From an uncultured Actinomycetota bacterium (GTDB taxonomy: Bacteria > Actinomycetota > Actinomycetes > JAHEKZ01), in the NCBI GenBank assembly GCA_963718235.1, contig CAVQYR010000002.1, positions 786,978-850,977 of the forward strand: a stretch of DNA of 64,000 nucleotides, written 5' to 3'. Both the position numbers and the translations under genes were made by a program. Below the pieces are notes generated by a model. That model made no database searches, was not told the origin of the DNA, and worked only from the letters and a program-made list of their open reading frames with translations. This document shows, one piece after another, positions 13,332 through 41,729 of this stretch. Within the stretch, counting starts at the first letter, position 1, and each line of letters starts with the position of its first letter.

Positions 13332-13344
13332 CCGACGACCGGGC

Positions 13345-13375
13345 GGGCTCGGCCTGGCGAGCCCTCTTGATTGTG
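13345..13375 (+). terminator. candidate intrinsic terminator after dprA
   Basis: GGGCUCG / CGAGCCC 7-bp GC stem with 6-nt loop, followed by UCUUGAUUGUG. Confidence 0.35.
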
Positions 13376-13401
13376 CGGCCTGCCGGACGCACCGTGGGGC
13401 G

Positions 13402-15205: not shown

Positions 15206-15769
15206 GCCCAGCGGGAGCAGGGTCAGCGGGCCACGCAGCAGCAGCCGCGGGTCGAAGTACCGGGTGTCGTCACGCAGCCCCCAGTGCAGGCACGTCCACG
15301 GCCCGCAGTGGGGGCTGTAGGCCAAGGTGCCGAGCACCTCGCCGGCCCTGACGACGTCGCCCACCGAGACCCTTGGCTCGAGCGGCTCGTAGGTGGTGCG
15401 CAGCCCGTCACCGAGCCCCACCACCACGACGCCCCGCCCGGCGAGCGAGCCAGCGAAGGTGACCGACCCGGCCACGGCGGCGACGACCGGGTCGCCGACG
15501 TCGCCGGCCAGGTCGACGCCGCGGTGACCCGCCTTCCAGGGGTCCTTGGGTGGGTCGAACTCGCGAACCACCACCGGCGGGCTCAGCGGCCAGGTGCCGA
15601 CCACGGTCTCGGCGGCGGCCGGGGAGGCCAGCACCACCAGGACGAGCCCGCCCAAGCCGAGCGACGACAGGCTGAGCGTCCGCAGGCACAGCGTCCACAG
15701 GCTGAGCGCCCGCGGGCCCACCGAGACGCGGCGGGACCGAGCAGGGGCACGGGTGCGTCGGGAGGTCAC
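15002..15769 (-). CDS. M23 family metallopeptidase with signal peptide
   Basis: HRGVDLAG...GSVTFAG...[14 protein letters not shown]23 motifs. Signal-like [17 protein letters not shown]. Start guessed at GTG 15769. No in-frame stop until 15002, which is antisense to the sigma gene 3' end. Confidence 0.55.
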
Positions 15770-26877: not shown

Positions 26878-28158
26878 ATGGGTGTTCTGGTCCGCGAGTA
26901 CCACGACGACGACCTCGAGGGCGTCGTCCACCTGTGGGACGCCACCGAGCCGCTCGGCCAGGGTTCGGTGTTCACCGTCGCCGAGGGCATCGCCGCTCTG
27001 CGCGCCAACGAGCCGGCCGTGGTCGCCGTCTCGGCTGGGCGGATCGTGGGCATGGCCCTGGCCGAGGTCAGTGGCGAGCGGGCCTGGGTCCTGCGCCTCG
27101 CGGTCGACCCGGGACGCCGCGGCGAGGGACTCGTGAGCGCCCTGCTGCGCGAGCTGGAGCGCCTGCTGGTCGACGAGCACGTGCGGCGGATCGGCTACGT
27201 GCTGCCGGAGGAGGAGCTCCTGTCCGAGGGGCTGGTGAAGGCGGGGTACCAACGGCTTCCGGCGGTGGCCTACTTCGAGAAGGTCGAGGCCCTCGGTCCC
27301 GGCGAGGCCTCGGTGCTCAGCGGCCTGGGCGGGCGGATGCTCCCCTCGGACCTGTGGGCCCGGGTGGCCGGCATGCGCACCGAGAAGGAGCTGATCGAGC
27401 GGCGGGTGATCCTCCCGCTGGCCGAGCCGGAGAGGGCAGCGGCGCACGGCGTCGTCCCCCCGCGGGCGATCGTGCTGTTCGGGCCCCCCGGAACCGGCAA
27501 GACGACCTTCGCCCGCGGGATCGCCTCGCACCTGGGGTGGCCGTTCGTGGAGATCTTCCCGTCTCGGCTGGCCGCCGAACCCGGCGGTCTCTCGTCGGCC
27601 CTGCGCGACATGTTCGCCCAGATCGGCGACCTCGAGCGGGTCGTGGTCTTCATGGACGAGGTGGAGGAGATCGCGTCACTGCGCGACGGCGTGCCCAGCT
27701 CGGCCGCGCACGGCGTGACCAACGAGCTGCTGAAGCTCATCCCTCAGTTCCGCGAGCGGGACACCCGACTGCTGGTCGCGGCGACCAACTCCGTCCGGTC
27801 GCTCGACTCGGCGTTTCTCCGGCCCGGACGCTTCGACTACGTCATCCCCGTCGGCCCACCGGACGCCGACGCGAGGCGAGCCCTGTGGACCGCCTACACG
27901 CAAGGCCTGGGGAGCAGCGTCGACATCGAGGCGCTGGTGAGGGCCAGCGAGGGGCTCACCCCCGCCGACATCGAGCACGCGGCACGGGTGGCCGCGCAGG
28001 CGTCGTTCGAGCGCGAGCTGGTCGACGGTGTCGGCGACGACGAACCAGGAGCATCGACCGTCGACTACCTCGAGGCGATCGGGCAGGCGCGACCGACGGT
28101 CACCGAAGCGATGGTGCAGGAGTTCAACGAGGACATCGACGCGTTCGCGCGGCTGTGA
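26878..28158 (+). CDS. fusion protein: N-terminal GNAT acetyltransferase domain plus C-terminal AAA+ ATPase domain
   Basis: GNAT motif A RLAVDPGRRGEGLVSALL. Walker A GPPGTGKT. Walker B VVFMDEVEE. Sensor and arginine-finger region LRPGRFDYVIPVGPPD. Confidence 0.7.
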   Translation: MGVLVREYHDDDLEGVVHLWDATEPLGQGSVFTVAEGIAALRANEPAVVAVSAGRIVGMALAEVSGERAWVLRLAVDPGRRGEGLVSALLRELERLLVDEHVRRIGYVLPEEELLSEGLVKAGYQRLPAVAYFEKVEALGPGEASVLSGLGGRMLPSDLWARVAGMRTEKELIERRVILPLAEPERAAAHGVVPPRAIVLFGPPGTGKTTFARGIASHLGWPFVEIFPSRLAAEPGGLSSALRDMFAQIGDLERVVVFMDEVEEIASLRDGVPSSAAHGVTNELLKLIPQFRERDTRLLVAATNSVRSLDSAFLRPGRFDYVIPVGPPDADARRALWTAYTQGLGSSVDIEALVRASEGLTPADIEHAARVAAQASFERELVDGVGDDEPGASTVDYLEAIGQARPTVTEAMVQEFNEDIDAFARL

Positions 28159-28177: not shown

Positions 28178-28540
28178 TTACTTGGCGATCACGTAGAACT
28201 TGCGGACCGGCTCGAGGATGTCCCAGCGGCCGCTCCACCCCTTGGGCAGGGTCAGCACGTCGCCGGCAGTGAGCTCGCGGCTGCTGCCGTCAGCATTGGT
28301 GAGGCGGGCCCGCCCGGCCATGATCCGCACCGTCTCGGTGTCGGGGCGGTTCTCGATCGACCAGCCCCCGGGAGTGCAGGCCCAGACGCCGACCTGGACG
28401 CCGTCGGCGTCGTGCATGATCCGCCCGGACATCACCGGCTCGCCGACATCGGCTCCGACCCGCGGCCCCCAGTCCTCCAGCGGACCGTCCAGGTCGGCGT
28501 CAGTGGCAGCCAGGAACAGGGGAGAGGTGGTGACGTCCAT
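28178..28540 (-). CDS. cupin-domain protein (DUF861/cupin_3-like)
   Basis: 120-aa single cupin barrel pattern. Confidence 0.55.
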   Translation of the reverse strand: MDVTTSPLFLAATDADLDGPLEDWGPRVGADVGEPVMSGRIMHDADGVQVGVWACTPGGWSIENRPDTETVRIMAGRARLTNADGSSRELTAGDVLTLPKGWSGRWDILEPVRKFYVIAK

Positions 28541-28693
28541 CGGAGCTCCTCGGGCTTTCGCGGGCTTGGTGCCGACCGGCTGGTGGGCTCGGTCTTCGCG
28601 GGATCAGGCAGTGGTTCACGCAGTGGCCCAGCATACCCGTGACGGGGAGTGACAAGATGCCTCGTCCGCGCGTCGTCGTTGATGGAGGAGCCC

Positions 28694-30010
28694 ATGTCCG
28701 ACCGTCCGCTCACGGTCTTGTTCCTGCCGGAGTCGGCCTTCGGCCCGACCAACCAGTGCATCGGCGTCGGCGACGTGCTGCGTCGTCGTGGGCACCGGGT
28801 CGTGTTCGCGGCCGAGGCATCGTGGCGGGGCAAGCTGGAGCCCCACGGCTTCGAGGAGGAGCTCGTGCACCTCGCGGCACCTCCGGCCGACGACGAGCCC
28901 GACCAGGACGTCGGCCAGTTCTGGAAGGACTTCATCCGTGAGACGTCTCCGGAGTTCCGCAAGCCCACGGTCGACCAGCTCGCCACGTTCATCCAACCGA
29001 CCTTCCAGGCCTTGATCGACGGCGCCAAGTACTGCGAGCCGCAGCTGAAGGAGATCGTCGAGCGGGTGCGACCCGACGTGGTGGTCGAGGACAACGTCGT
29101 CGCTTTTCCGGCGCTGCTCACCTCCGGTGGAGCGTACGTGCGGATCGTGTCGTGCAACCCGTTGGAGGTGAAGGGTCCTGGTGTTGCGCCGACGTTCTCG
29201 GGCCTGCCGGCCGACGACGACTCGCAGTGGGCGGCGTTTCGGGCGGAGTACGACCGCACGCACCGCGCGATGTGGGAGGACTTCAACACCTGGGTGCAGG
29301 AGCAAGGAGCACCGCCGCTGCCCGAGCTCGAGTTCATGCACGTCAGCCAGGCGGTCAACCTGTACGTGTATCCCGAGGAGATCGACTACACCGACGCCCG
29401 ACCGCTCGACGACACGTGGCACCGGATCGACTCCAGCGTGCGCACCACCGACGAGGCGTTCGAGCTTCCCGACCAGCTGCGCGACCGTCCACCCGGCAGC
29501 GCCCTGGTGTACCTGTCCCTGGGCTCGCTCGGCAGCGCCGACGTCGACCTGATGAAGCGGCTCGTGGCCATCCTGGCGACCACCCCGCACCGCTACGTCG
29601 TGAGCAAGGGGCCGCAGCACGACCAGTACGAGCTCGCCGACAACATGTGGGGGGCGGAGTTCCTGCCCCAGACCCAGGTGATCCCCCTGGTCGACCTGGT
29701 GATCACCCACGGCGGCAACAACACGACCACCGAGGCACTCCACTTCGGCAAGCCGATGGTGGTGCTCCCGCTCTTCTGGGACCAGTACGACAACGCCCAG
29801 CGGGTCGACGAGACCGGGTACGGCGTCCGCCTGCCCACCTACGACTTCACCGACGACGAGCTGTCCGGTGCGGTCGACCGACTGCTCGGTGACCGGCAGC
29901 TGCGTCAGCGGATGGCGCAGCTGGGTGAGTCGATCCGGGCGCGGCGAGGGGTCGAGAAGGCCGCGCAGCTCATCGAGTCGGTCGGATCCGCCGGCTCCCG
30001 GGAGTCGTGA
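28694..30010 (+). CDS. GT1-family UDP-glycosyltransferase (MGT/UGT-like)
   Basis: GGAGGAG RBS. N-terminal acceptor domain. C-terminal THGGNNTTTEALHFGKPMVVLPLFWDQYDNAQRV donor-binding signature. Confidence 0.75.
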   Translation: MSDRPLTVLFLPESAFGPTNQCIGVGDVLRRRGHRVVFAAEASWRGKLEPHGFEEELVHLAAPPADDEPDQDVGQFWKDFIRETSPEFRKPTVDQLATFIQPTFQALIDGAKYCEPQLKEIVERVRPDVVVEDNVVAFPALLTSGGAYVRIVSCNPLEVKGPGVAPTFSGLPADDDSQWAAFRAEYDRTHRAMWEDFNTWVQEQGAPPLPELEFMHVSQAVNLYVYPEEIDYTDARPLDDTWHRIDSSVRTTDEAFELPDQLRDRPPGSALVYLSLGSLGSADVDLMKRLVAILATTPHRYVVSKGPQHDQYELADNMWGAEFLPQTQVIPLVDLVITHGGNNTTTEALHFGKPMVVLPLFWDQYDNAQRVDETGYGVRLPTYDFTDDELSGAVDRLLGDRQLRQRMAQLGESIRARRGVEKAAQLIESVGSAGSRES

Positions 30011-31362
30011 TCGACCCCGCTGCGCTTGCGCAGCAGGTGGCGCGGCTGGCGCCGCGCGTGCTGCTTCCCGACCGGGCCGGCACGACGACCACAGAGGTGG
30101 GCGCCCTGGTCCTGGTCGACCAGCTCGTGCTGGGAGACGAGCTGGTCGTGCTCCTGGTCAGGGACAGCATCGGCCGACTCCTGGTCGCCCCGGCTCTCGT
30201 GACGCCCTCCGGTCCCCGGCGGGCCCGGGTCGGCGACGGCGTCAGCGAGGCCCTCCTGCGGCTGCTCGTCGGCCGACCCGGTGAGCACGGCCGTTTCGTG
30301 CTGCAGCGGCTGCACGGTCGGTCGGTCGGCGGCGAACGGGCGATGGGGGTCGACCAGACGAACGAGTCGGTGGTCGTCGGTGAGACGGCCGTCGTCAAGT
30401 GGCTGTACCGGGTGAGCGGCGAGCACCCGGCTCCGGGCCGGTTGTCGCTGCTTGACCGGGCCGGGTTCTCGGCGATCCCCCAACCCTGGGGGTTCGTGTT
30501 CTGGCGCGACGACGCCGGCCGCCACGTGCTGCTGGCGACCGTCGACGAGTACCTGGGCGACGCGACCAACGGCTGGACCTGGGGTGTCGACGACGTGCGG
30601 CGCCTGGGCCGCGGCGAGCTGACCCTCGCCGAGGCCGCGGCACCGGCGTCGACGGTGGGCGAGATGGTCGGGGCCATGCACATCGCCTTCGCCACCGCCG
30701 GGGTCGCCCGGGCCGGCGCAGCGCAGTGCGAGCGATGGCGACAACAGGCTGACGCCGCGCTCGCCGCAGCCCTGGACGAGGTCGACGGAGCCGAGGGTGA
30801 GCGCCTGCGTGCTCGGGCAGACGACATCGCGGACCGGCTGCGAGCCTGGTCGCGGATCGACGACCCCACGGTGATCCCCGTGCACGGGGACCTGCACGTC
30901 GGCCAGATCCTCAGGTACCGCACGACCGACGGTGCGGAGGCTTACGCCGTCACCGACTTCGACGGGAACCCGGTGCTGGAGTCCGCCGAGCGGACCGCGG
31001 CGCAGCCGGCCGCCCGTGACGTCGCCGGCTACCTCCAGGCCCTGGACCACGTCGGGCGGATCGTCGTCAGGCGTACGGAGGGGGTCGACCTTCGGGTCGT
31101 GGACGACTGGATCGAGGCGGCTCAACAGGCCTTCCTGGACGCGTACCGGTCACGGCTCGAGCAAGCGGGTGCGGAGGTTCTGCTGCAGGAGGAGCTCCTG
31201 GACCCGATGCGGGTCGAGCAGGAGTGTCGGGAGCTCCTGTACGCCGTGCGCTACGACCCGACCTGGCGCTACGTGCCCGACGCCGCCATGGCAGCCTTGC
31301 TGGCCACGTCCGCCGGGCCGGCTGGCTCATCGGTGCCTGCGGCCCCGACCGAGGAGAGCTGA
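30007..31362 (+). CDS. maltokinase (Mak/Pep2)-like phosphotransferase of the aminoglycoside-kinase fold
   Basis: GTGA overlap with the GT gene. VVKWLYRV cap region. Catalytic VIPVHGDLHVGQILRY and DFDGNP motifs. Confidence 0.6.
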   Translation: MIDPAALAQQVARLAPRVLLPDRAGTTTTEVGALVLVDQLVLGDELVVLLVRDSIGRLLVAPALVTPSGPRRARVGDGVSEALLRLLVGRPGEHGRFVLQRLHGRSVGGERAMGVDQTNESVVVGETAVVKWLYRVSGEHPAPGRLSLLDRAGFSAIPQPWGFVFWRDDAGRHVLLATVDEYLGDATNGWTWGVDDVRRLGRGELTLAEAAAPASTVGEMVGAMHIAFATAGVARAGAAQCERWRQQADAALAAALDEVDGAEGERLRARADDIADRLRAWSRIDDPTVIPVHGDLHVGQILRYRTTDGAEAYAVTDFDGNPVLESAERTAAQPAARDVAGYLQALDHVGRIVVRRTEGVDLRVVDDWIEAAQQAFLDAYRSRLEQAGAEVLLQEELLDPMRVEQECRELLYAVRYDPTWRYVPDAAMAALLATSAGPAGSSVPAAPTEES

Positions 31363-32342
31363 TGGACCCGAAGCGATTCCTCGACGACCTGGAGGCCAAG
31401 CCGCAGGCGCTGGGCTCCCTGTCCGCCAGCATCGCCGGGGCCGACCCCTGGCGCGAGGCGATCGAGCGGGCCGGTCAGCCGGCCAAGCGCATCCTGTTCC
31501 TGGGGATGGGTTCGTCGACGTTCGCGGCGGGAGTGGCGGCAGCGAGGCTGCGCGCGTCGGGTCGGTACGCCGTGGCCGAGCTGGCCAGCTCAGCGCTGCT
31601 CCCACCGCCGAGTCCCGGCACGCTCGTTGTCGCGGTGTCGGCGTCCGGTGGCTCGACCGAGACCGTCGCCGCAGCACAGCGCTACGCCGGGCGGGTTCCG
31701 CTGGTGGCGCTGACGAACAGCGAGAGCAGCGTGCTGGCCGGTCTCGCCGACGTCACCGTGGCGATGGGGGCAGGCCCGGAGACCGGTGGCGTCGCATGCC
31801 GGTCCTTCCAGCACACCCTCGTACTGCTCCTCGCCCTCGAGCGGGCCCTCGGCGCGACCGGACCGGACCTGGCCGCGACGGTTCGACGGTCCGCCGAGGC
31901 CACCGACGACCTCTTGTCCCGGCGTTCGGAGTGGCTGGAGCGCACCACCGACCTCCTGGCCGGACCCGCCGGCACCTTCGCCGTGGCGCCCGCTGCCCGG
32001 CTGAGCAGTGCCCAGCAGTCCGCACTGATGGTCCGTGAGGGACCACGCCGTCCAGCGGTCGCCTCGGAGACGGGGGAGTGGAGCCACGTCGACGTCTACC
32101 TGACCAAGACCCTGGACTACCGCATGCTGCTGTTCCCCGGCTCGGCCCACGACGCAGAGCTGCTGCGCTGGACCACCGAGCGCGAGGCGACGGTGGTGAC
32201 GGTGGGCCGCGCGGTCCCGCAGGCGACGGCGTCGGTGCGGTTCCGCCATGACGACGACGACCTGGTCCGCCTCGTCAGCGACGTGCTCGTCGCCGAGCTG
32301 GTCGCGCAGCGGCTGTGGGCGCAGGGCCGGTCGACCCCGTAG
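31362..32342 (+). CDS. SIS-domain protein (AgaS / GlmS-C-terminal / FrlB-like sugar-phosphate isomerase or deglycase)
   Basis: TGATG overlap with the kinase gene. ILFLGMGSS and VAVSASGGSTET SIS motifs. Confidence 0.7.
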   Translation: MDPKRFLDDLEAKPQALGSLSASIAGADPWREAIERAGQPAKRILFLGMGSSTFAAGVAAARLRASGRYAVAELASSALLPPPSPGTLVVAVSASGGSTETVAAAQRYAGRVPLVALTNSESSVLAGLADVTVAMGAGPETGGVACRSFQHTLVLLLALERALGATGPDLAATVRRSAEATDDLLSRRSEWLERTTDLLAGPAGTFAVAPAARLSSAQQSALMVREGPRRPAVASETGEWSHVDVYLTKTLDYRMLLFPGSAHDAELLRWTTEREATVVTVGRAVPQATASVRFRHDDDDLVRLVSDVLVAELVAQRLWAQGRSTP

Positions 32343-32351
32343 CGGCTGCGA

Positions 32352-32906
32352 CTACGGCGCCGGACCGAGGACCCACAGCACGACGGTCTGCCCGCCGGAG
32401 GAGTTGCGCCACCGGTGCGGCTGGGTGGCCCGGAAGGTGAGGGCGTCCCCGGCGTCGAGGACGTGGGACTGCGCCTCGACGTCGACCGTGAGCTGGCCGG
32501 AGACCACGTAGGCGAACTCGACGTCGCCGTCGAAGGTGTACAGGTCGGCGCCACTCGTGCCGTCGGGCGACAGACAGGCGCGGATGACGGTGAACCGCCG
32601 CTGGTCACCCGACGACATGACGACCTCGTCGAGGCCGTGTCCACCGAACTGGAGCGGGGAGCCCTCGTTGCGCCGGACCACCGCGGCGCTGGGCGGGTCG
32701 AACAGGTCGCCGATCCGCAGGCCGACCGCCTCGCACACGGCGAGGAGCGAGGGGACCGACGCCGACACCTCGTCACGCTCGAGCCGGCTGAGGAAGCCCT
32801 TGGTCAGCCCGGTCGTCTCGCCGACCGCTGCGATGGTCAGCCCGCGCGCATGCCGGGCGTCCCTCAGCTTCTGTCCGACGCTCGACCGGTCGGGGCGCGT
32901 GGGCAC
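32352..32906 (-). CDS. XRE-family HTH regulator with C-terminal cupin sensor domain
   Basis: HTH_3 LRDARHARGLTIAAVGETTGLTKGFLSRLE plus C-terminal cupin_2. Confidence 0.75.
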   Translation of the reverse strand: MPTRPDRSSVGQKLRDARHARGLTIAAVGETTGLTKGFLSRLERDEVSASVPSLLAVCEAVGLRIGDLFDPPSAAVVRRNEGSPLQFGGHGLDEVVMSSGDQRRFTVIRACLSPDGTSGADLYTFDGDVEFAYVVSGQLTVDVEAQSHVLDAGDALTFRATQPHRWRNSSGGQTVVLWVLGPAP

Positions 32907-32914
32907 GGGCGGCC

Positions 32915-34306
32915 TCAGCCGTGGATGAGCTTCTCGAACGTGCGGGCGATGACTGAGGGGCGCCCGGTGCGAGCCTCCTCGGGATCAGCCGCCCCCATGG
33001 CGGTGAGCCCCGCGTTGACGCCGAGCCACCGCAGGGGTTCCGGCTCCCACTTGCGGGAACGGCGGTTCACCCACGGCAGCGTGGTGAGGTCGGTGTCCCG
33101 TCCGAGGATGAGGTCGGCCAGGGTCTGGCCTCCGAGGTGGGAGGTGCCCACGCCGTCGCCGACGTACCCGGCCGACCAGCCGAGCCCGGTGGCCTGGTCG
33201 AGCCCGACGGTGGCCCACCAGTCGCGGGCGATCCCGAGGGGGCCGCCCCACCGTGCGGTGACCTCGGCGTCGGCGACCTCGGGGAAGAGGTCGGCCAAGG
33301 TGCGTTGCAGCCAGGCGAACACCTTCTCGTCGCGGTCGAACTCCGGGTTCACCCGCGACCTGAAGTGGTAGGGCGCACCCCGGCCGCCGAAGGCGAAGCG
33401 GCCGTCGGCGGTGCGCTGCCCGTAGATGACCATGTTGCGCAGGTCGGCGAAGGTCTGCCGCTGGGACAGCCCGATCCGGCTCCAGGCCGCCTCGCTGAGC
33501 GGCTCGGTGGCGATCATCAGCGAGTACATCGGGATGACGTCGCGCTGGTGGCCGGGGAGGGTGGGTGTGTATCCCTCGGTGGCGCGCACCACGTAGGGCG
33601 CACGAACGTCTCCGCGGGTGGTGCGGACCACGCCGGGCTCGATCGCCGTGGCGGCGGTGTGCTCGTGGACGACCCCGCCACGACGCTCGACCGCCTCGGC
33701 CAGCTGACGGACGAGCTTCGCCGGGTGGATGGCCGCGGTGTGCGGGGTGTAGAAGCCACCCACGACACCCTGCGCCGCCGCCTGCTGCCTCGCCTCGTCG
33801 GCGGACAGCAGCCGGTAGTCCTCGTCGCCGAACCCCCACTGCCTGGCGTGCTCGACCTCGGCCCGCGCCTTGGCCAGCTGGACGTCACTGCGGGCGAGCA
33901 GCACCGTTCCGCCCTTGGCCCAGTCGACCGACATCTGCTCGGCCTCGACGACCCGCCCCACCTCGTCGACCGTGTCGAACATGGCCCGCTGCAGGCGCAC
34001 CGCCTCCTCGCGCGAGGACTCGTGGGCGATCTTGTCCCAGGTGGCCGGGAACAGCGACGAGCACCATCCGCCGTTGCGCCCGGACGCGCCGTAACCGGCG
34101 AGCTCCTTCTCGACGACGACCACGCGCAGCGTCGGGTCGTTGACGAGGAGGTAGTACGCGGTCCACAGACCGGTGTAGCCGGCTCCGACGATCGCGACGT
34201 CCGCCTCCACCGGCCCGGGTAGCGGCGCGCGAGGGGTGATGGGGTCGGGAAGCGTGCCCCACCAGAAGGACAGGCCGCGTGGGTCGGTCAGGGAGACGGG
34301 GCTCAT
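32915..34306 (-). CDS. FAD-dependent oxidoreductase (DAO family, gamma-glutamylputrescine-oxidase-like)
   Basis: VAIVGAGYTGLWTAYYL dinucleotide fold, GRNGGWCSS. ATGA overlap with the upstream PNPOx-like gene. Confidence 0.75.
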   Translation of the reverse strand: MSPVSLTDPRGLSFWWGTLPDPITPRAPLPGPVEADVAIVGAGYTGLWTAYYLLVNDPTLRVVVVEKELAGYGASGRNGGWCSSLFPATWDKIAHESSREEAVRLQRAMFDTVDEVGRVVEAEQMSVDWAKGGTVLLARSDVQLAKARAEVEHARQWGFGDEDYRLLSADEARQQAAAQGVVGGFYTPHTAAIHPAKLVRQLAEAVERRGGVVHEHTAATAIEPGVVRTTRGDVRAPYVVRATEGYTPTLPGHQRDVIPMYSLMIATEPLSEAAWSRIGLSQRQTFADLRNMVIYGQRTADGRFAFGGRGAPYHFRSRVNPEFDRDEKVFAWLQRTLADLFPEVADAEVTARWGGPLGIARDWWATVGLDQATGLGWSAGYVGDGVGTSHLGGQTLADLILGRDTDLTTLPWVNRRSRKWEPEPLRWLGVNAGLTAMGAADPEEARTGRPSVIARTFEKLIHG

Positions 34307-34962
34307 CGGGTCCACTTCCGGACGTAGGACGGGATCGGGTAGGGGGCGGCCAGGTCGGGGGCCGGGACGGGGCGTCCGAGCACCTCGGTCATGGGGACTA
34401 CCCCGGCCCAGATCGGCAGGCTCAGGTCGTCCGGCTCGTCGGTCGGCGGACCGTCGGCGATCTTCACGGAGGTCTCGTCGAGGGGCAGGGCGAGGACCAA
34501 GGTCGCGGCGAGCTCCTTCTTGCTGGGGTGTCGGGCCTCCTGCCAGCGACCGGGCAGCAGGTGCTCGGTGATGAGGTGCAGCGCCTCTGACTTGGCCGGA
34601 CCGGTCACCTTCGTCGCCACGCCCAGAACCATGGCACTGCGGTAGTGCATCGACGACTCGAAGGTCGAGCGGGCAAGGACCAGCCCGTCCAGGAGGGTCA
34701 CCGTCAGGCAGGTCGGCTGGCCGCCGGCGAGGCCGCGGAACAGTCGGCTGCCCGTGGAGCCGTGGAACAGGACCTGCTCACCGTCTCGTGCGTAGGCGAC
34801 GGGGACGACGTACGGCTGCCCGGCGTCGTCGCGCACGGCCAGGTGGGCCACCAGCCCGGCGTCGAGAACGGCGTGCAGGGCCGCGCGGTCGCGGACCGTC
34901 TTCTCGGGGAGCCGGCGGATCTTGGTGCGCTTCGTCGACCCCGGAGGCGGTGGCGTGGTCAT
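34303..34962 (-). CDS. pyridoxamine 5'-phosphate oxidase-family FMN-binding protein
   Basis: PNPOx-like split-barrel pattern. Start placed downstream of the 34989-35034 hairpin. Confidence 0.55.
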   Translation of the reverse strand: MTTPPPPGSTKRTKIRRLPEKTVRDRAALHAVLDAGLVAHLAVRDDAGQPYVVPVAYARDGEQVLFHGSTGSRLFRGLAGGQPTCLTVTLLDGLVLARSTFESSMHYRSAMVLGVATKVTGPAKSEALHLITEHLLPGRWQEARHPSKKELAATLVLALPLDETSVKIADGPPTDEPDDLSLPIWAGVVPMTEVLGRPVPAPDLAAPYPIPSYVRKWTR

Positions 34963-34988
34963 GGTGTCTCCCGTCATGGCGTCCGTTG

Positions 34989-35034
34989 CACGGCGTGGGG
35001 CTCGCGACGTCGTCGCCGCGAGCCCCACGCCGTG
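34989..35034 (-). terminator. 46-nt near-perfect palindrome (18-bp GC stem, 10-nt loop) downstream of the aminotransferase gene
   Basis: cacggcgtggggctcgcg ... cgcgagccccacgccgtg. Confidence 0.4.
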
Positions 35035-35051
35035 AGAACCGTTCTGACCGC

Positions 35052-36449
35052 TTAGAGGATGCCCCAGGCCTCGGTGAGGACCGAGCGAAGGATCTGCTCG
35101 ATCTCGTCGAACTCCTTCTGACCGACGATCAGCGGCGGCGCGAGCTGGATGACGGGGTCGCCGCGGTCGTCGGCCCGGCAGTACAGGCCGTTGTCGTACA
35201 GCGCCTTGGACAAGAAGCCACGCAGGAGCCGCTCGGCCTCGTCGTCGTCGAACGTCTCCTTGGTCGCCTTGTCCTTGACCAGCTCGATCCCGTAGAAGTA
35301 GCCGGCGCCTCGGACGTCGCCGACGATCGGTAGGTCGTTGAGCTTCTCCAAGGTCGACCGGAACGCACCCTCGTTGGCCTGGACGTGCTCGTTGAGCCCT
35401 TCGCGGGCGAAGATGTCGAGGTTGGCGAGGGCGACGGCGGCAGCAACCGGGTGACCGCCCCAGGTGTACCCGTGGGCGAAGTAGTTCGTACCGGTGGCGA
35501 ACGGCTCGAACAGGCGGTCGCTCACGATCATCGCGCCCAGTGGTGCGTAGCCGGAGGTGAGCCCCTTCGCCGAGGTGATGATGTCCGGCGTCACGCCGTA
35601 GCGCTTGGTGGCGAAGTAGTCGCCGATCCGGCCGTAGGCACAGATGGTCTCGTCCGACACGTAGAGCACGTCGTACTGGTCGCAGATCTCGCGCACCCGC
35701 TGGAGGTACCCCGGCGGCGGCGGGAAGCAGCCTCCTGAGTTCTGCACCGGCTCGAGGAACACCGCGGCCACGGTGTCCGGACCCTCGAACAAGATGGCCT
35801 CCTCGATCCGGTCGGCGGCCCAGCGGCCGAACGCCGTGAGGTCGTCACCGTGCTCGGGCGCGCGGTAGAAGTTGGTGTTCGGCACCTTGACCGCGCTGGG
35901 GACCAGCGGCTCGAAGTACATCTTGGCGTCGGGGATCCCCGTGATCGACAGGGCGCCGTGCGGCGTGCCGTGGTAGGCGATCGAGCGACTGATCACCTTG
36001 TGCTTCATGGGCTTGCCGGTGAGCTTGAAGTACTGCTTGGCCAGCTTCCAGGCGCTCTCGACCGCCTCGCCCCCACCGGAGGTGAAGAAGACCCGGTTGA
36101 GGTCGCCGGGCGCGAGCTCGGCCAAGCGGTCGGCGAGCTCGATCGCGGCCGGGTGGGCGTAGGACCAGATCGGGAAGAAGGCGAGCTCGCTGGCCTGCTT
36201 GGCCATCACCTCGGCCAGCTCGGTGCGTCCGTGCCCTGCCTGGACCACGAACAGCCCGGCGAGGCCGTCGAGGTACTTCTTGCCCTGGTCGTCCCAGATG
36301 TAGGCGCCGTCGCCCCGGGTGATCACGGGGACGTGACCTCCTTGGGTGTACGTCGACATCCGGGTGAAGTGCATCCAGAGGTGGTCGCGGGCCTTGTCGG
36401 CCAGCTCGTCGTCGCCGCTCTCGGCCACGAACTGCGGTGAAACGGTCAT
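35052..36449 (-). CDS. class III pyridoxal-phosphate aminotransferase (omega-amino acid / putrescine / beta-alanine:pyruvate type)
   Basis: Full-length class-III fold with conserved Lys region ITSAKGLTSGYAPLGA. Confidence 0.8.
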   Translation of the reverse strand: MTVSPQFVAESGDDELADKARDHLWMHFTRMSTYTQGGHVPVITRGDGAYIWDDQGKKYLDGLAGLFVVQAGHGRTELAEVMAKQASELAFFPIWSYAHPAAIELADRLAELAPGDLNRVFFTSGGGEAVESAWKLAKQYFKLTGKPMKHKVISRSIAYHGTPHGALSITGIPDAKMYFEPLVPSAVKVPNTNFYRAPEHGDDLTAFGRWAADRIEEAILFEGPDTVAAVFLEPVQNSGGCFPPPPGYLQRVREICDQYDVLYVSDETICAYGRIGDYFATKRYGVTPDIITSAKGLTSGYAPLGAMIVSDRLFEPFATGTNYFAHGYTWGGHPVAAAVALANLDIFAREGLNEHVQANEGAFRSTLEKLNDLPIVGDVRGAGYFYGIELVKDKATKETFDDDEAERLLRGFLSKALYDNGLYCRADDRGDPVIQLAPPLIVGQKEFDEIEQILRSVLTEAWGIL

Positions 36450-36928
36450 CGGGTTCCCCAGGTGTAGATCTGTTTACGGAGCTTCAGGTAGACGAAGCTT
36501 TCGGTGTGGCGGACGCCGGGGATGCCCCGGATCCGACGGTTGATCACGTCGAGCAGGTGGTCGTCGTCCTCGCAGACGACTTCGACGAGGATGTCGTACG
36601 CGCCGGCGGTGATCACGACGTAGTCGACCTCCGGCATGGCCTCGAGCTTCTCGGCGACGACTTCCATGTCGCCCTCGACCCGGACCCCGATCATCGCCAT
36701 CCGGGTGAAGCCCACGGACAGCGGGTCAGTGACCGCGACGATCTGCATCGCTCCGGAGTCCAGCAGACGCTGGACCCGTTGGCGCACCGCGGCCTCGGAG
36801 AGACCGACGGCCTTGCCGATGGCGGCATAGGGACGTCGGCCGTCCTCCTGGAGCTGCTCGATGATCGCCTTCGACACGTCGTCGAGGACGCTCCCGTTGC
36901 TCCGGTCGCGGCTGGCCACGGGAAGCAT
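36446..36928 (-). CDS. Lrp/AsnC-family transcriptional regulator
   Basis: LDDVSKAIIEQLQEDGRRPYAAIGKAVGLSEAAVRQRVQRL HTH plus RAM domain. ATGA overlap with the aminotransferase. Confidence 0.75.
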   Translation of the reverse strand: MLPVASRDRSNGSVLDDVSKAIIEQLQEDGRRPYAAIGKAVGLSEAAVRQRVQRLLDSGAMQIVAVTDPLSVGFTRMAMIGVRVEGDMEVVAEKLEAMPEVDYVVITAGAYDILVEVVCEDDDHLLDVINRRIRGIPGVRHTESFVYLKLRKQIYTWGTR

Positions 36929-37090
36929 CCTGGCCAACGGAAGTGGCCTTTGGCAAGTGAATCCGCAGCAGAACCGACGTTCCTCGACTGATTCAGTCTG
37001 TCGATCCGCAGAATCCTGCCGGAATCTGTCGCAACCGAGCCCGGAGGTCTAGGCTGGGGGGGACGGTCCCCGTGCGACGTGGCGACCGCC

Positions 37091-37126
37091 CAGAACCAGC
37101 CCAAGAACCAGCCCAAAGACCAGCCC
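37091..37126 (+). repeat. three tandem copies of a 12-mer (c/a)AGAACCAGCCC directly upstream of the ALDH RBS
   Basis: cagaaccagccc aagaaccagccc aaagaccagccc, then AAGGAG, then GTG. Confidence 0.5.
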
Positions 37127-37142
37127 CGTGCAAGGAGACCCC

Positions 37143-38585
37143 GTGAGCGACCGCGTGTACCGCAACTTCATCAACGGCGAGTCCGTCGACTCCGCCGACG
37201 GCCAGATGATGGATCTGGTCAACCCCACCACCGGCGAGGTCTACGCCCAGGCCGCCAACTCCGGCGCTGAGGACGTCGACCGTGCCTTCGGCGCCGCCGC
37301 AGCCGCCTTCGAGACCTGGAAGGACAGCACGCCGTCCGAGCGGTCGCTGGCGCTGCTGAAGATCGCCGACGCGATCGAGGCCCACGCCGACGAGCTGGTC
37401 GCCCTCGAGAGCGAGAACACCGGGAAGCCGCTGGCCCTGACCCTGAGCGACGAGATCCCTCCCATGGTCGACCAGATCCGGTTCTTCGCCGGGGCCGCGC
37501 GCAACCTGGAGGGTCGGGCTGCCGCGGAGTACATGGCCGGGCACACCTCGATGATCCGGCGCGAGCCGGTCGGAGTGGTCGGTCAGGTCGCACCGTGGAA
37601 CTACCCGATGATGATGGCCACCTGGAAGTACGCGCCGGCGGTCGCGGCCGGTTGCACGACGGTGCTCAAGCCTTCGGACACCACTCCCGTCTCGACCGTC
37701 CGGATGGCCGAGATCGCAGCCGAGTTCCTCCCGCCGGGCGTCCTCAACGTGGTGACCGGCGACCGTGACACCGGTCGGGCACTGGTCGACCACCCGACCC
37801 CGCGCCTGATCTCCATCACCGGGTCCACCCGGGCCGGCATGCAGATCGCCGAGGCCGCGAGCAAGGACCTCAAGCGGCTGCACCTGGAGCTCGGAGGCAA
37901 GGCGCCGGTCATCATCTTCGACGACGCCGACATCGCCGCCGCAGCCGAGGCCATCGCGGTGGCCGGCTACTTCAACGCCGGCCAGGACTGCACGGCAGCG
38001 ACTCGAGTCATCGCCGCTCCCGGCGTCTACGACGACTTCGTCGCCGCGCTCACCGAGCAGGCGGCCGGCGTGGTCACGACCTACGACAACGGACCGTCCG
38101 ACGAGGACGCCCTGCTGCCCCCGGTGAACAACATCAACCAGTACGAGAGGGTGCTCGGCTTCTTCGACCGGCTGCCGGACCACGCACGGATCACCACCGG
38201 TGGCGAGAAGATCGGTGACCACGGCTTCTTCATCAAGCCCAGCGTGATCGCTGACGTGCGTCAGGACGACGAGGTCATCCAGAGCGAGATCTTCGGCCCG
38301 GTGATCACCGTGCAGAAGTTCGGTGACGAGGCCGAAGCCCTGCGCTACGCGAACGGCGTCGACTACGGCCTGGCGTCGAGTGTGTGGACCCGTGACTTCG
38401 GTCGAGCGATGCGCATGGCCAAGGGGCTCGACTTCGGCTGCGTGTGGATCAACACCCACATCCCGCTGGTCGCCGAGATGCCGCACGGTGGCTTCAAGCA
38501 CTCCGGGTACGGCAAGGACCTCTCGATGTACGGGTTCGACGACTACACGCGCGTCAAGCACGTGATGGCGAACATCGACTCCTGA
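37143..38585 (+). CDS. NAD-dependent aldehyde dehydrogenase (gamma-aminobutyraldehyde / betaine-aldehyde DH-like)
   Basis: AAGGAG RBS 5 nt before GTG. ELGGKAP and catalytic Cys region GQDCTAA. Confidence 0.8.
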
Positions 38586-38597
38586 CCGAAGTCCAAC

Positions 38598-38638
38598 CAG
38601 TGAGGGGGAGTGTGCGCACCGCACGCTCCCCCTCACTG
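38598..38638 (+). terminator. strong hairpin (about 19-bp stem, 3-nt loop) 12 nt after the ALDH stop
   Basis: cagtgagggggagtgtgcg cac cgcacgctccccctcactg. Confidence 0.5.
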
Positions 38639-38958
38639 TGTTGCGCTGCGGAACGGATCCAGGGCCAGCAGAGTCGTGCGGTGGGTCCGACGCTCGAGTG
38701 TCCCGGTCCCGTTCGAGCAGCCGGTGCAGGGCGAGCGCAGCCGCGCTGCGTTCGACGAGCAGGACGTCCGGCGGCCTGCCAAGACGCCCGCGGAGGGTGT
38801 CCTTTCCGGGGTGTCGCGGGGTCCCGACAGCCTCTGAATCCGTTGCAGGGCCTTGACGACGCCACGGAATCCCTTGTCACCTCGTGCGCTCTCTGTCAGG
38901 ATCGGCGGCCGGGACGTGACGTTCAGGGGCGCCGCACGTCGCGGCTGAGGAGGTGCAC

Positions 38959-40443
38959 GTGAGCGGCAGTCAGTACATCGCCGGGCGACGAGTGTCAGGC
39001 ACGTCAGGCACCAGCCACGACCTGATCGACCCGTCGAACGGGGAGGTCATCACCGAGCTCGACCTGGCCGGTCCTGACGACGTCGACGCCGCAGTGGCCG
39101 CGGCCAAGGCAGCGTTCCCCGAGTGGGCGGGAGCGACCCCGGCGGCGCGCTCAGACGCGCTCCATCGCTTCTCCGCCGTGCTGGCCGAGCGCGCCGCCGA
39201 GCTCGCGGAGGTCGAGAGCCGCCAAGCGGGCAAGCCGATCAAGCTCACGACCGAGTTCGACGTGCCGGGCACGATCGACAACACCTCGTTCTTCGCGGGT
39301 GCCGCACGCAACCTCGAGGGAAAGGCCAGTGGCGAGTACAGCGGTGACCACACGTCGTCGATCCGTCGCGAGCCGATCGGGGTGGTCGGCTCGATCGCGC
39401 CGTGGAACTACCCCCTCCAGATGGCTGGATGGAAGGTGCTGCCGGCGATCGCCGCGGGCAACACCATCGTCCTGAAGCCGGCCGAGCTCACCCCGCTCAC
39501 GTCCCTCATGTTCGCCGAGGCCGCGACGGCAGCCGGGATCCCAGACGGCGTGGTGAACGTCCTGACCGGCCGGGGCTCCGTCGCCGGGCAGCACCTGATG
39601 GCCCACCCCGATGTGTCGATGGTGTCGTTCACCGGCTCCACGCCGGTCGGGCAGCAGGTGATGCAGACCGCCGCTGGGACGGTGAAACGGGTGCACCTCG
39701 AGCTCGGTGGCAAGGCACCCTTCGTGGTCTTCGACGACGCCGACCTCGATGCTGCGGTGAACGGTGCCGTTGCCGGCTCGCTGATCAACAGCGGCCAGGA
39801 CTGCACGGCGGCCACGCGGGCCTACGTCCAGCGACCGTTGTACGACGCGTTCGTGCAGGGAGTCGGCGACGTCATGCGTACCGTCCGGCTCGGGCCGACG
39901 GCAGACCCGAGCACCGACCAGGGGCCGCTGATCTCGCGCAGGCAGCAGGCCAACGTCGCAGGCTTCGTCGACCGCGCGCGAGGCTATGGCGCCAAGGTCG
40001 TCTGCGGCGGGTCCATCCCCGGCGGCGAGCTGTCGGTCGGCTCGTACTACGAGCCGACGCTCGTGGTCGACGTCGCGCAGGACAGCGAGATCGTCCAGCA
40101 GGAGATCTTCGGTCCCGTGCTGGTCGTGCTCCCGTTCGACAGCGACGACGACGGGTTCCGGATGGCCAACGACACGCCGTTCGGCCTGGCCGCGTCGGTG
40201 TGGACCACCGACGTGTTCCGCGCACTGCGGGGTGCCGCCGAGATCCGGTCTGGCTGCGTCTGGGTGAACGACCACATCCCGATCATCAGCGAGATGCCAC
40301 ACGGGGGTTACAAGCAGTCCGGCTTCGGCAAGGACATGAGCCAGTACTCCCTCGACGAGTACACCAACGTCAAGCACGTCATGTACGACCGGACTGCAGC
40401 CGTGCGCAAGGACTGGCACCGCACTGTCTTCGGTGACCGTTGA
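38959..40443 (+). CDS. NAD-dependent aldehyde dehydrogenase, second paralog
   Basis: GAGGAGG RBS then [11 protein letters not shown] and GQDCTAATR catalytic region. Confidence 0.8.
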   Translation: MSGSQYIAGRRVSGTSGTSHDLIDPSNGEVITELDLAGPDDVDAAVAAAKAAFPEWAGATPAARSDALHRFSAVLAERAAELAEVESRQAGKPIKLTTEFDVPGTIDNTSFFAGAARNLEGKASGEYSGDHTSSIRREPIGVVGSIAPWNYPLQMAGWKVLPAIAAGNTIVLKPAELTPLTSLMFAEAATAAGIPDGVVNVLTGRGSVAGQHLMAHPDVSMVSFTGSTPVGQQVMQTAAGTVKRVHLELGGKAPFVVFDDADLDAAVNGAVAGSLINSGQDCTAATRAYVQRPLYDAFVQGVGDVMRTVRLGPTADPSTDQGPLISRRQQANVAGFVDRARGYGAKVVCGGSIPGGELSVGSYYEPTLVVDVAQDSEIVQQEIFGPVLVVLPFDSDDDGFRMANDTPFGLAASVWTTDVFRALRGAAEIRSGCVWVNDHIPIISEMPHGGYKQSGFGKDMSQYSLDEYTNVKHVMYDRTAAVRKDWHRTVFGDR

Positions 40444-40494
40444 CACGACTCGCACGTCCGGGCTGCAGCATCCTCGTCGCGTAGGATCCACGAC

Positions 40495-41718
40495 ATGGCG
40501 GATCCTGGCGGCTCGACGTCCGTCTTCGGCGGAGGCTCACCAGACACCGGTCTGAGTGCGTTGTCCCGACGGGGATTCCTGCGCGGGGTCGGTGCTGGGG
40601 GTGTGGCGACGGCCGCCGCTGGCGTCCTCGCCGCCTGTGGCGGCGCCGCCGAGGAGCCCGATGCCAGTGGTACCGCCACACCGACACCGACCGACGCCCT
40701 TGTCATCTCCAACTGGCGTGCCTACATCGACCGGGGAACCGTCGACGGCCAGCGGGTGAGTCCCACGCTGGAGACGTTCGAGGACGAGACCGATGTGATC
40801 GTCTCGTACAACCAGGACGTCAACGACAACCAGGACTTCTTCGACAAGATCCGCAACGCCTTGGCGGCCGGCCAGCCGACCGGGCGTGACCTGTTCATGC
40901 TCACCGACTGGATGGCGGCCAAGCTCATCCGCCTCGACTACCTGCAGCCCATCGACAAGGCCAACGTCCCCAACGCCACCAACCTGATCGCCCCGCTCAC
41001 CGACGTGGTCTTCGACCCGAACCGCGACTACTCCCTGCCGTGGCAGTCAGGCCTCACCGGCATTGCGGTCAACCAGAACGTGTTCGCGGGCGACGTCACC
41101 ACCATGACCGACCTGCTGACCGACCCCCGCCTGAAGGGTCGGGTCACGGTGCTGACCGAGATGCGGGACACGATGGGGCTGCTGCTGCTGGAACAGGGTT
41201 CCAACCCCGCCGACTTCACCGTCGACGAGTGGGAGCAGGCGCTCGGGGTCCTGCAGGAAGCTGTCGACAGTGACCAGATCCGTGGGTTCACCGGCAACGA
41301 CTATCTCCAAGACCTGCAGCGCGGTGACATCGCCGCGTGCCTGGCGTGGTCGGGCGACGTCATCCAGGCGCAGTTCGAGGATCCCAAGATCCTCTTCAAC
41401 CTGCCTGAGGCCGGAGCGATGCTCTGGTCGGACAACATGCTGATCCCCAACGGTGTGCAGAACAAGCTCAACGCCGAGGCGTGGATGAACTACTACTACG
41501 ACCCCGAGGTGGCCGCGCAGCTGGCGGCCGGGGTCAGGTACATCTGTCCCGTGCAGGGGGCCCAGGACGCGATGAAGAGGATTGACAAGAGCCTGGTGGA
41601 CAACCCTCTGGTGTTTCCCACCGAGGAGGACTACGCCAAGCTCTCGGTGTTCCGTGGGCTCACCGAGGACGAAGCCACCGTCTTCACCGAGCAGTTCCTC
41701 GCCGTGCAGGGCGGCTGA
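40495..41718 (+). CDS. polyamine (PotD/PotF-type) ABC substrate-binding lipoprotein with Tat-like signal
   Basis: RRGFLRGVGAGGVATAAAGVLAACGG twin-arginine/lipobox N-terminus. PotD/F-like body. Confidence 0.7.
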   Translation: MADPGGSTSVFGGGSPDTGLSALSRRGFLRGVGAGGVATAAAGVLAACGGAAEEPDASGTATPTPTDALVISNWRAYIDRGTVDGQRVSPTLETFEDETDVIVSYNQDVNDNQDFFDKIRNALAAGQPTGRDLFMLTDWMAAKLIRLDYLQPIDKANVPNATNLIAPLTDVVFDPNRDYSLPWQSGLTGIAVNQNVFAGDVTTMTDLLTDPRLKGRVTVLTEMRDTMGLLLLEQGSNPADFTVDEWEQALGVLQEAVDSDQIRGFTGNDYLQDLQRGDIAACLAWSGDVIQAQFEDPKILFNLPEAGAMLWSDNMLIPNGVQNKLNAEAWMNYYYDPEVAAQLAAGVRYICPVQGAQDAMKRIDKSLVDNPLVFPTEEDYAKLSVFRGLTEDEATVFTEQFLAVQGG

Positions 41719-41729
41719 CGGTTGCCCGG

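Follow-up and report, generated by a model that had tools for sequence, protein, structure and literature searches.

What is the function of an operon that joins, in an uncultured actinomycete, the genes of a family 1 glycosyltransferase (GT1), of a maltokinase-like kinase and of a SIS-domain protein? This question is raised by positions 28178-32906 of a 64-kb stretch of contig CAVQYR010000002.1 (G+C content about 70%), hereafter the window, a term that designates the whole stretch. The three genes form a divergent member, from an uncultured actinomycete, of an actinobacterial operon type, GT1-GlcNK-SIS, that was published in 2019 together with the glucosamine (GlcN) specificity of its kinase, GlcNK. 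The window is a re-discovery of this operon type, to which it adds a divergent member, and both an NCBIfam model and crystal structures already exist for the kinase family. The reading that we favour, with a probability of about 0.6, is that the known GlcNK operon is present here, that its kinase forms glucosamine 6-phosphate (GlcN-6P), that the SIS protein converts it to fructose 6-phosphate (Fru-6P) and NH3, and that the GT1 transfers a sugar to an acceptor. Previously unreported are the replacement of the catalytic histidine of the GT1 by a proline, the extreme conservation of this GT1, its kinship with spider-mite UDP-glycosyltransferases (UGTs) and a recurrent neighbour of polyamine type. 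These details leave the classification of the operon unchanged and are leads toward its physiological role. Globally, the comparative data narrow this role (a module-like trio, a most-constrained GT1 devoid of the histidine, a polyamine-type neighbour) and point to specific substrates and mutants for testing.

The trio is made of the following genes:

28694..30010, + strand: GT1-family UDP-sugar glycosyltransferase of 438 aa, first gene of the operon (Pfam UDPGT, EryCIII-like_C and Glyco_tran_28_C)
30007..31362, + strand: GlcNK-family phosphotransferase of 451 aa, a maltokinase paralogue with a GTG start (PDB 6HWJ, E=8.4e-89)
31362..32342, + strand: predicted two-subdomain SIS phosphosugar isomerase/deaminase of 326 aa (Pfam SIS, PF01380, residues 41-159)

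The listing of open reading frames and a direct reading of the junctions confirmed the five genes of 28178-32906, that is, the trio and one gene on each side, and both overlaps are exactly as given in a preliminary description of the sequence. In the GTGA overlap (30007), the stop codon of the GT1 gene (TGA, 30008-30010) overlaps the start codon of the kinase gene (GTG, 30007-30009); in the TGATG overlap (31362), the stop codon of the kinase gene (TGA, 31360-31362) shares its A with the start codon of the SIS gene (ATG, 31362-31364). The operon structure and the three domain assignments of that description (GT1, phosphotransferase of Mak/Pep2-like fold, SIS) also proved correct in Pfam and NCBIfam comparisons. 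The GT1 gene starts at the ATG 28694, located behind GGAGGA, and the GTG 28649 further upstream is not its start; public records contain the product of 438 aa but no version of 453 aa.

Such tight start/stop coupling is no chance feature of this window. The comparison set comprises 80 genome loci (L001-L080) encoding relatives of the window kinase, and a start codon with a 4-nt overlap of the upstream stop is available at the GT1-kinase junction in 31 of 72 loci and at the kinase-SIS junction in 43 of 74, in counts for which the choice of starts by the script favours overlapping ones. The three genes are probably transcribed as one mRNA and translationally coupled. No paralogue of the kinase, GT1 or SIS gene was found elsewhere in the 64 kb, and neither a glmS ribozyme, a riboswitch nor any other Rfam family matched the window, which was scanned over its full length.

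The association of the three genes is itself conserved. Among the 62 adequately flanked loci (at least 8.5 kb upstream and at least 2 kb downstream), 56 carry GT1, kinase and SIS genes in the same order and orientation, and independent public gene calls with Pfam annotation give the same arrangement in Kineosporia and in two other assemblies. The contexts vary: the trio adjoins AftD, GH3 and P450 genes in some mycobacteria, and a two-component system and an APH/M23/aminotransferase fusion in Kineosporia; it was also found in low-GC (46-48%) freshwater lineages of Planktophila type. The trio thus behaves as a self-contained, vertically conserved module moving through varied contexts, and its presence also in Planktophila-type lineages argues against a role in the tailoring of secondary metabolites. 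How tightly the kinase gene is linked to a GT1 gene and to the gene of a putative SIS isomerase of AgaS type was described by Manso et al. (2019, mBio, PMC6520443), who also reported that the operon of Streptacidiphilus jiangxiensis includes in addition putative PGM and UDP-glucose pyrophosphorylase (UDPGP) genes and that antiSMASH places several such operons inside predicted biosynthetic gene clusters (BGCs). A search for literature on the role of the operon later than 2019 yielded nothing beyond this paper and its preprint. A treS- or glgE-like gene was found neither among the genes of the annotated neighbourhood, which covers 20.7 to 43.2 kb of the window, nor among the annotated neighbour clusters (the most frequent ones) of the 80 loci. 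Neither of the two patterns that the preliminary description had named as contradicting it, orthologues lying beside treS/glgE and a trio not co-conserved in other genomes, was therefore observed.

The kinase itself is best placed, from its sequence, in the glucosamine-kinase family and not among maltokinases. Profile comparison, which the preliminary description had proposed for both the kinase and the SIS protein, gave 'glucosamine kinase' (NF041273) as the best NCBIfam model for the kinase (391.8 bits, E=4e-117, model positions 2-391 of 391); the putative maltokinase model TIGR02457 reached 98.7 bits for a cut-off of 375, and the Pfam scan of the kinase returned no domain match. In the PDB, the match to the glucosamine kinase SjGlcNK (6HWJ) extends over residues 10-432 and three mycobacterial maltokinases reach only 1.1e-17 to 6.7e-11. 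The motifs found in the kinase are VDQTNESVVVGETAVVKW, HGDLHVGQ and TDFDGNP, corresponding to the P-loop (VDQTNESV), the lysine of AVVKW, the catalytic loop and the DFD loop. Amino-sugar remodelling, one of the options raised in the preliminary description, therefore pointed in the right direction.

The substrate-binding residues are consistent with this assignment. According to the published work, the defining features of GlcNKs are a D-x-H motif within the catalytic loop and, for helix alpha-12, the pattern Q-x2-RE-x2-YA-x3-LP-x-W; the contacts to GlcN are D300, H302, Q405, R408, E409, Y412 and W420 in SjGlcNK numbering, Q405 and E409 forming hydrogen bonds with the 2-amino group in the SjGlcNK structure (PMC6520443). 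Every GlcN-contacting residue is kept in the window kinase (D295, H297, Q405, R408, E409, Y412 and W420), H348, A413 and P418 being likewise conserved, and the contact residues are invariant in 32 homologues except the histidine (H in 31 of the 32). The signature of helix alpha-12, Q-x(2)-RE-x(2)-YA-x(3)-LP-x-W, is however not fully matched, as the window has QECRELLYAVRYDPTW, in which L417 is replaced by D. The change H416Y/L417D is common to only the three nearest relatives of the kinase (63-82% identity), and L417 is present in 28 of the 32 homologues. Position 417 corresponds to R438 of the maltokinase MtMak, a contact to the second glucose of maltose (PMC6520443); because of this correspondence, the Y416/D417 sub-clade may not share what other GlcNKs have beyond the GlcN ring.

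Both characterized orthologues, SjGlcNK and MsGlcNK from Mycolicibacterium smegmatis, phosphorylate GlcN at O6 and are inactive on maltose, with a Km for GlcN of about 8 mM; of 20 sugars, SjGlcNK accepts GlcN alone, apart from a vestigial reaction with glucose, and it has no activity on four aminoglycosides (PMC6520443). The reaction predicted for the window kinase is hence the ATP-dependent conversion of GlcN to GlcN-6P. The window operon and those of SjGlcNK/MsGlcNK (PDB 6HWJ/6HWK/6HWL) share the same three linked gene families, a full-length alignment of the kinases and identical catalytic motifs. They differ by residues 416/417, which are Y/D and not H/L in the window kinase as in its three nearest relatives, and by the score of this kinase, below the equivalog cut-off. 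The window also lacks PGM and UDPGP genes, a predicted BGC context and a TetR gene, and its trio is flanked by a divergent cupin_3 gene and by a convergent operon of amine catabolism.

The SIS protein is less easily classified. The preliminary description called it a double-SIS protein of AgaS/FrlB type; the double-SIS architecture stands, whereas the likeness to FrlB does not. A profile built from 30 orthologues and run against the PDB had its best match with an uncharacterised Salmonella protein (3KNZ, 3e-14); it also matched GlmS isomerase domains (6e-12 to 1e-9) and the SIS-type GlcN-6P deaminase NagB-II (8EOL, 4e-10), but reached only 1e-3 with the FrlB-type deglycase 3EUA of Bacillus subtilis, so that an assignment as FrlB-type deglycase is unsupported. 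The C-terminal half of the protein aligns with the second subdomain of GlmS isomerase domains. The phosphate-binding loops GMGSS (48-52) and SASGGSTET (93-101) are invariant in orthologues as GMGSS and SASGGSxET, and the invariant E226 and H242 align with the Glu of 'KEIS' and the His of 'LKHG' in the catalytic Glu/His region of GlmS. The protein has therefore in common with the GlmS isomerase domain, NagB-II and GlmD (8EOL, 1MOQ) the architecture of two SIS subdomains, the GxGSS and SxSGxSxET loops and the Glu/His pair. It differs from them by scores far under all curated cut-offs (in NCBIfam, 42-46 bits for GlmS, with 42.7 versus 418, 27 versus 430 for NagB-II, 23 versus 580 for GlmD and 15 versus 529 for AgaS), GlmS being nearest, and no C-terminal tail containing a lysine is evident when the sequence is judged by eye. 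Because it resembles the GlmS isomerase domain and NagB-II and keeps the catalytic Glu and His, the SIS protein is predicted to work at the step between GlcN-6P and Fru-6P plus NH3; its acting there, directly downstream of the kinase, is the most economical inference.

The GT1 is the component that sets the trio apart. It matches PF00201 with 61.5 bits (cut-off 19.5) and PF06722 with 67.8 bits (cut-off 31.7), and it lies under the cut-offs of models of macrolide/rifamycin type: 133.7 versus 260 for MGT (TIGR01426), 93.6 versus 700 for Mgt (NF033129), 50.6 versus 700 for OleI and 36.3 versus 800 for Rgt. Its nearest solved relatives are, end to end, the spider-mite enzymes TuUGT203A2 (7LVY, 8.5e-87, 37% identity) and TuUGT202A2 (6PNT, 2.9e-70, 33% identity), and the best bacterial GT1 structures of the PDB reach only about 1e-24. 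The mite UGTs are thought to derive from a transfer of bacterial origin. From the alignments, the GT1 clade of the trio is among the closest bacterial relatives of these horizontally acquired detoxification enzymes: the homology extends over the full length, the dyad Asp is kept, within 'VVEDN', and the donor motif HGGNNT...FWDQYDNAQR aligns with those of mite UGTs that use UDP-glucose. The segments 70-113 and 182-210 of the TuUGT202A2 N-domain were read as arthropod innovations in a 2023 JBC paper. The window GT1 aligns across both without large gaps, and the features of these segments, once thought to be arthropod innovations, thus probably pre-exist in the bacterial clade.

The main difference from the mite enzymes concerns the active site. 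The catalytic dyad of TuUGT202A2 is formed by His25 and Asp140 (PMC10731231). Pro18 of the window GT1 (codon 28745-28747) aligns to His25 ('AFGPTNQCIG' versus 'GPGHLNACLG'), and His25 is replaced by Pro across the whole GlcNK-linked bacterial clade: G-P-T occupies the site of the catalytic His in all full-length GT1 orthologues of the 80 loci, in a conserved GPTNQC motif. An exhaustive search of 1.8 billion representatives showed that GT1 relatives at 33-46% identity mostly keep G-H-x-N, so that the loss of the catalytic histidine is a derived trait fixed in the GlcNK-linked clade. The GT1 is nevertheless probably still catalytically active, since its donor motif is intact and since purifying selection on it is very strong. 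Some GT1 enzymes, such as UrdGT2/LanGT2, use the Asp directly as base. The median identity to the window protein is 67% for the GT1, 53% for the SIS protein and 43% for the kinase, and, locus by locus, the identity of the GT1 exceeds that of the kinase in all 62 loci compared and that of the SIS protein in 61 of them. The GT1 is thus the most constrained component of the trio, even more so than the kinase. Resistance and tailoring glycosyltransferases are usually far less conserved. A further contrast with the mite UGTs is that the bacterial GT1 is highly constrained and embedded in an operon, whereas the mite family is expanded, promiscuous and detoxifying.

The favoured reading can then be put as a sequence of steps. 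The kinase, with its maltokinase-like fold, would use ATP to phosphorylate free GlcN at O6, an activity shown for two orthologues and extended here to the window protein. By homology, the SIS protein would interconvert the resulting GlcN-6P with Fru-6P and ammonia, feeding glycolysis and the nitrogen pool. The GT1 would be an inverting UDP-sugar transferase devoid of the usual catalytic His and acting on an acceptor that is evidently very conserved, and the flanking cupin and XRE-cupin genes would be local neighbours outside the system. Several observations weigh against this scheme. The score of the kinase, 391.8 bits, is lower than the equivalog cut-off of NF041273 (550), and the H416Y/L417D change appears as a deviation from the GlcNK signature precisely where Mak binds its second sugar. 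Given the high Km of the orthologues (about 8 mM), free GlcN may not be the physiological substrate. The SIS protein clears no curated family cut-off. The GT1 has no role in a two-step route of GlcN catabolism and yet is the most conserved gene. Lastly, no transporter or hydrolase for GlcN or chitosan was seen in the annotated neighbourhood (20.7 to 43.2 kb).

The neighbourhood of the trio bears on its role and on the rival readings. In the window, it comprises the following features:

28178..28540, - strand: divergent gene of a Cupin_3 (EutQ-like) protein of 120 aa (Pfam PF05899, 70 bits)
28541..28693: divergent intergenic region of 153 bp, expected promoter site of the operon
32352..32906, - strand: XRE-type helix-turn-helix (HTH) and cupin regulator of PuuR-like architecture (Pfam HTH_31 and Cupin_2)
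32915-34315, - strand: DAO-family gene, DAO1
34303-35028, - strand: PPOX-like protein gene
35052-36449, - strand: class-III aminotransferase gene
36446-36937, - strand: Lrp/AsnC regulator gene
37128-38585, + strand: aldehyde dehydrogenase (ALDH) gene, ALDH1, product above the PRK13473 cut-off
38953-40443, + strand: second ALDH gene, ALDH2, product above the PRK13473 cut-off
40495-41718, + strand: gene of a substrate-binding protein of PotF/PotD-like type (PotF-like)
41730-43229, + strand: second DAO-family gene, DAO2

The region 32352-43229 can be considered, from its predicted products, as a large catabolic island of amine/polyamine type; PRK13473, the NCBIfam cut-off cleared by both ALDHs, defines the aminobutyraldehyde-dehydrogenase subfamily. 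A PuuA/GlnA-like or PuuD-like gene was seen neither in this island nor among the annotated neighbour clusters. Elsewhere, a recurrent neighbour of the trio is a minus-strand block encoding an ALDH, a FAD oxidoreductase of the DAO family and a transporter, divergent from TetR-GT1-GlcNK-SIS and found in Nanopelagicales, Planktophila, Mumia, Longivirga and Mycolicibacterium. In Nanopelagicales, Planktophila (46-48% GC), Nocardioidaceae, Mumia and Longivirga, transport is ensured by a PotABCD-like ABC system, and in Mycolicibacterium by an APC-family permease; the block stays next to TetR-GT1-GlcNK-SIS either way. Near the trio, the DAO/ALDH pair was found in 23 of the 62 loci, either gene in 32 and an ABC transporter in 20; about half of the loci have no amine block within 10 kb. 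A polyamine-type module of uptake and oxidation is the most frequent neighbour of the trio. In the window, ALDH2 and DAO2 are 50% and 52% identical to the ALDH and DAO of L009, orthologues of the pair that adjoins the trio in many genomes; the ALDH2/PotF-like/DAO2 genes begin 6.6 kb downstream of the trio, past ALDH1 and an inserted Lrp-aminotransferase-PPOX-DAO1-XRE operon. These data, drawn from the neighbourhoods of related genomes, are suggestive of a functional or regulatory link of the trio with the scavenging of amines and nitrogen.

The coordinates of the transporter block are 3929-8615 in L009, with equivalents in about 20 loci, and 3237-8628 in L039. In a further locus, L081 (Kineosporia sp. 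A_224), the gene located directly 3' of the SIS gene (12379-15420) encodes a protein of 1013 aa with APH (kinase), Peptidase_M23 and class-III aminotransferase domains; here too, a kinase is linked with amine metabolism beside the trio.

Other readings of the trio must be weighed against GlcN salvage. In the one favoured by Manso et al., which we regard as possible but unlikely, GlcN-6P would arise from salvaged GlcN through the kinase and/or from Fru-6P and NH3 through the SIS protein, then be converted to a nucleotide sugar by a phosphomutase and a uridylyltransferase, and the GT1 would produce a glucosaminide or another glycoside, on a conserved acceptor, perhaps a secondary metabolite or a constituent of the cell. 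The putative PGM and UDP-glucose pyrophosphorylase genes of the S. jiangxiensis operon and the antiSMASH predictions (PMC6520443) fit this biosynthetic route, as does a GT1 that is the first and most conserved gene and whose donor-binding motif is intact. However, a PGM or UDPGP gene was found neither in the window neighbourhood nor among the most frequent neighbour clusters annotated, and no NRPS (nonribosomal peptide synthetase), PKS (polyketide synthase) or other core biosynthetic gene lies near the window trio; NRPS and PKS are also absent from the recurrent annotated clusters (transporter, DAO, ALDH, TetR, AMP-ligase, MMPL, AftD, GH3, P450). Furthermore, the trio occurs in low-GC Planktophila-type lineages and, in mycobacteria, beside housekeeping genes such as AftD, and a median GT1 identity of 67% across orders is atypical for tailoring enzymes. 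The recurring amine block gives rise to another proposal, which appears distinctly improbable: the trio and the module made of the transporter, FAD amine oxidase and aminobutyraldehyde dehydrogenase would act together on an amine-sugar conjugate, for example a glycosylated polyamine or a Heyns-type N-substituted glucosamine. In the manner of FrlD/FrlB or Gfr, the kinase and SIS protein would then free Fru-6P or Glc-6P (glucose 6-phosphate) and an amine that is subsequently oxidised, and the GT1 might make the conjugate, a sugar analogue of the gamma-glutamyl tag of PuuA. This would account for the divergent arrangement [ALDH-DAO-transporter] <> [TetR-GT1-GlcNK-SIS] with the frequencies given above, for its persistence while the transporter type changes, for the orthologous genes located 6.6 kb off in the window, whose ALDHs pass the aminobutyraldehyde-dehydrogenase cut-off, and for the lack of GlnA/PuuA-like or PuuD-like genes among annotated neighbour clusters; the high Km for free GlcN and the missing GT1 histidine would also fit an amine-bearing or unusual substrate. 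But these are neighbourhood data from phylogenetically non-independent loci, the module is missing within 10 kb in about half of them, other contexts exist, and the DAO/ALDH/transporter module is a self-sufficient unit of amine oxidation. In addition, the SIS protein is nearer to GlmS/NagB-II than to FrlB, and Q405 and E409, which bind the 2-amino group in SjGlcNK, may leave no space for an N-substituent. N-glucosylamines of aliphatic amines are also chemically labile, which counts against such a conjugate. Among the fructosamine and glucoselysine systems (frlABCD in Escherichia coli, frlBONMD in B. subtilis, gfr in Salmonella), a kinase and a deglycase/deaminase of the SIS family act on 6-phospho amino-sugar adducts; these systems often have an ABC importer and have no glycosyltransferase, and the FrlD kinase has a PfkB-type fold. 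The trio follows the same kinase and SIS logic, but its kinase has another fold, its match to FrlB (3EUA) is marginal and the GT1 is found only in the trio. Going further, and in our opinion still harder to credit, the trio could be half of a TetR-controlled regulon devoted to an amine-sugar conjugate rather than to GlcN salvage, with a glycosyl group in the role that gamma-glutamyl has in the Puu pathway of polyamines. The His-less GT1 would tag an imported polyamine-type amine or handle its adduct, the FAD oxidase and the ALDH would act next, and the kinase and SIS protein would finally remove the sugar as a hexose 6-phosphate; in that case, free GlcN (Km of about 8 mM) would be no more than a minimal surrogate substrate.

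Two readings are effectively excluded. The preliminary description had considered the inactivation of an antibiotic or xenobiotic through glycosylation by an MGT-like GT1 and phosphorylation by an APH-like kinase, and this now looks very unlikely. Indeed, the weak matches of the GT1 to macrolide and rifamycin glycosyltransferase models are all sub-threshold, by the margins given above for MGT, Mgt and Rgt; the label 'aminoglycoside phosphotransferase' that sources give to kinase homologues is contradicted by the SjGlcNK panels of four aminoglycosides and 20 sugars (PMC6520443); and while the nearest solved GT1 relatives are detoxifying mite UGTs, the catalytic His of these enzymes is Pro throughout the window clade. 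Such a scheme also gives no role to the SIS phosphosugar isomerase, and the trio, which occurs also in low-GC Planktophila-type lineages, is vertically conserved with a very high GT1 identity instead of a patchy distribution. Curated cut-offs, substrate tests already in print and the way in which the trio is conserved thus led to the rejection of a pair made of an antibiotic-modifying glycosyltransferase and an APH. That the kinase would be an ordinary maltokinase (Mak/Pep2) serving the GlgE route to alpha-glucan is scarcely conceivable. The kinase does have in common with Mak/Pep2 (4O7O, 4U94, 5JY7) the eukaryotic-like-kinase fold, the P-loop, the catalytic loop and the DFD loop, and JGI labels its homologues 'maltokinase'. 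By contrast, the specificity residues differ, K426, Y370 and R438, with which Mak holds the second glucose, being Q405, H348 and D417 in the window; the PDB match to GlcNK is better by about 70 orders of magnitude; GlcNK orthologues are inactive on maltose and target O6 of GlcN, whereas Mak targets O1 of maltose; and no TreS/GlgE context is present. Together with the TIGR02457 score, the far better match to 6HWJ and these replaced residues led to the rejection of a canonical maltokinase, and they bear out the view of the preliminary description that this is not the canonical route to maltose 1-phosphate.

The control of the operon also differs from what had been assumed. The preliminary description saw the cupin and XRE-cupin genes as bracketing regulators that would provide a ligand-responsive control, and this did not hold. 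Of the 80 loci, only 7 have the cupin_3 gene, and these 7 belong to the nearest relatives; the XRE-cupin gene is present in only one, L001, an uncultured Actinomycetes soil MAG (metagenome-assembled genome) that is the nearest genome and whose neighbour proteins are 69-95% identical; the XRE-cupin gene also seems to lie on the contigs that bear the two nearest metagenomic homologues. The XRE-cupin gene is moreover the last of a minus-strand operon, Lrp/AsnC - class-III aminotransferase - PPOX-like - DAO - XRE-cupin (junctions of -4, +23, -13 and +8 nt). This operon and the SIS gene are convergent, their stop codons lying 9 nt apart. Poor conservation and operon geometry thus rule out both genes as dedicated regulators of the trio. 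The XRE-cupin protein is best read as a regulator of the neighbouring amine-catabolic genes. It resembles PuuR of E. coli in its HTH and cupin architecture, its end-to-end alignment and its place in an amine-catabolic operon: residues 9-175, with an XRE HTH and a C-terminal cupin, align on positions 7-175 of the NCBIfam PuuR model (NF007408). It departs from the E. coli Puu system by its score (60.6 bits, cut-off 211), by the lack of PuuA/PuuD genes in sight and by its not being conserved with the trio.

In other loci, the gene located directly upstream of GT1 most often encodes a TetR-family regulator (29 of 62), and the lineage of the window is devoid of this usual regulator. In the 153-bp region between the cupin and GT1 genes (28541-28693), no sigma-70-like promoter was recognised, no inverted repeat was found and no motif is conserved with L005, L037 and L054. 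The search for terminators gave only two terminator-like matches, both inside coding sequence. On the other side of the cupin gene, positions 26878-28158 (+ strand) encode a protein of 426 aa in which an N-terminal GNAT acetyltransferase domain is fused to an AAA+ ATPase domain of CDC48/proteasome type and an AAA lid. This gene converges on the cupin gene with a gap of 19 nt; it is absent from the other cupin-bearing loci, and its counterpart in L001 is 87% identical.

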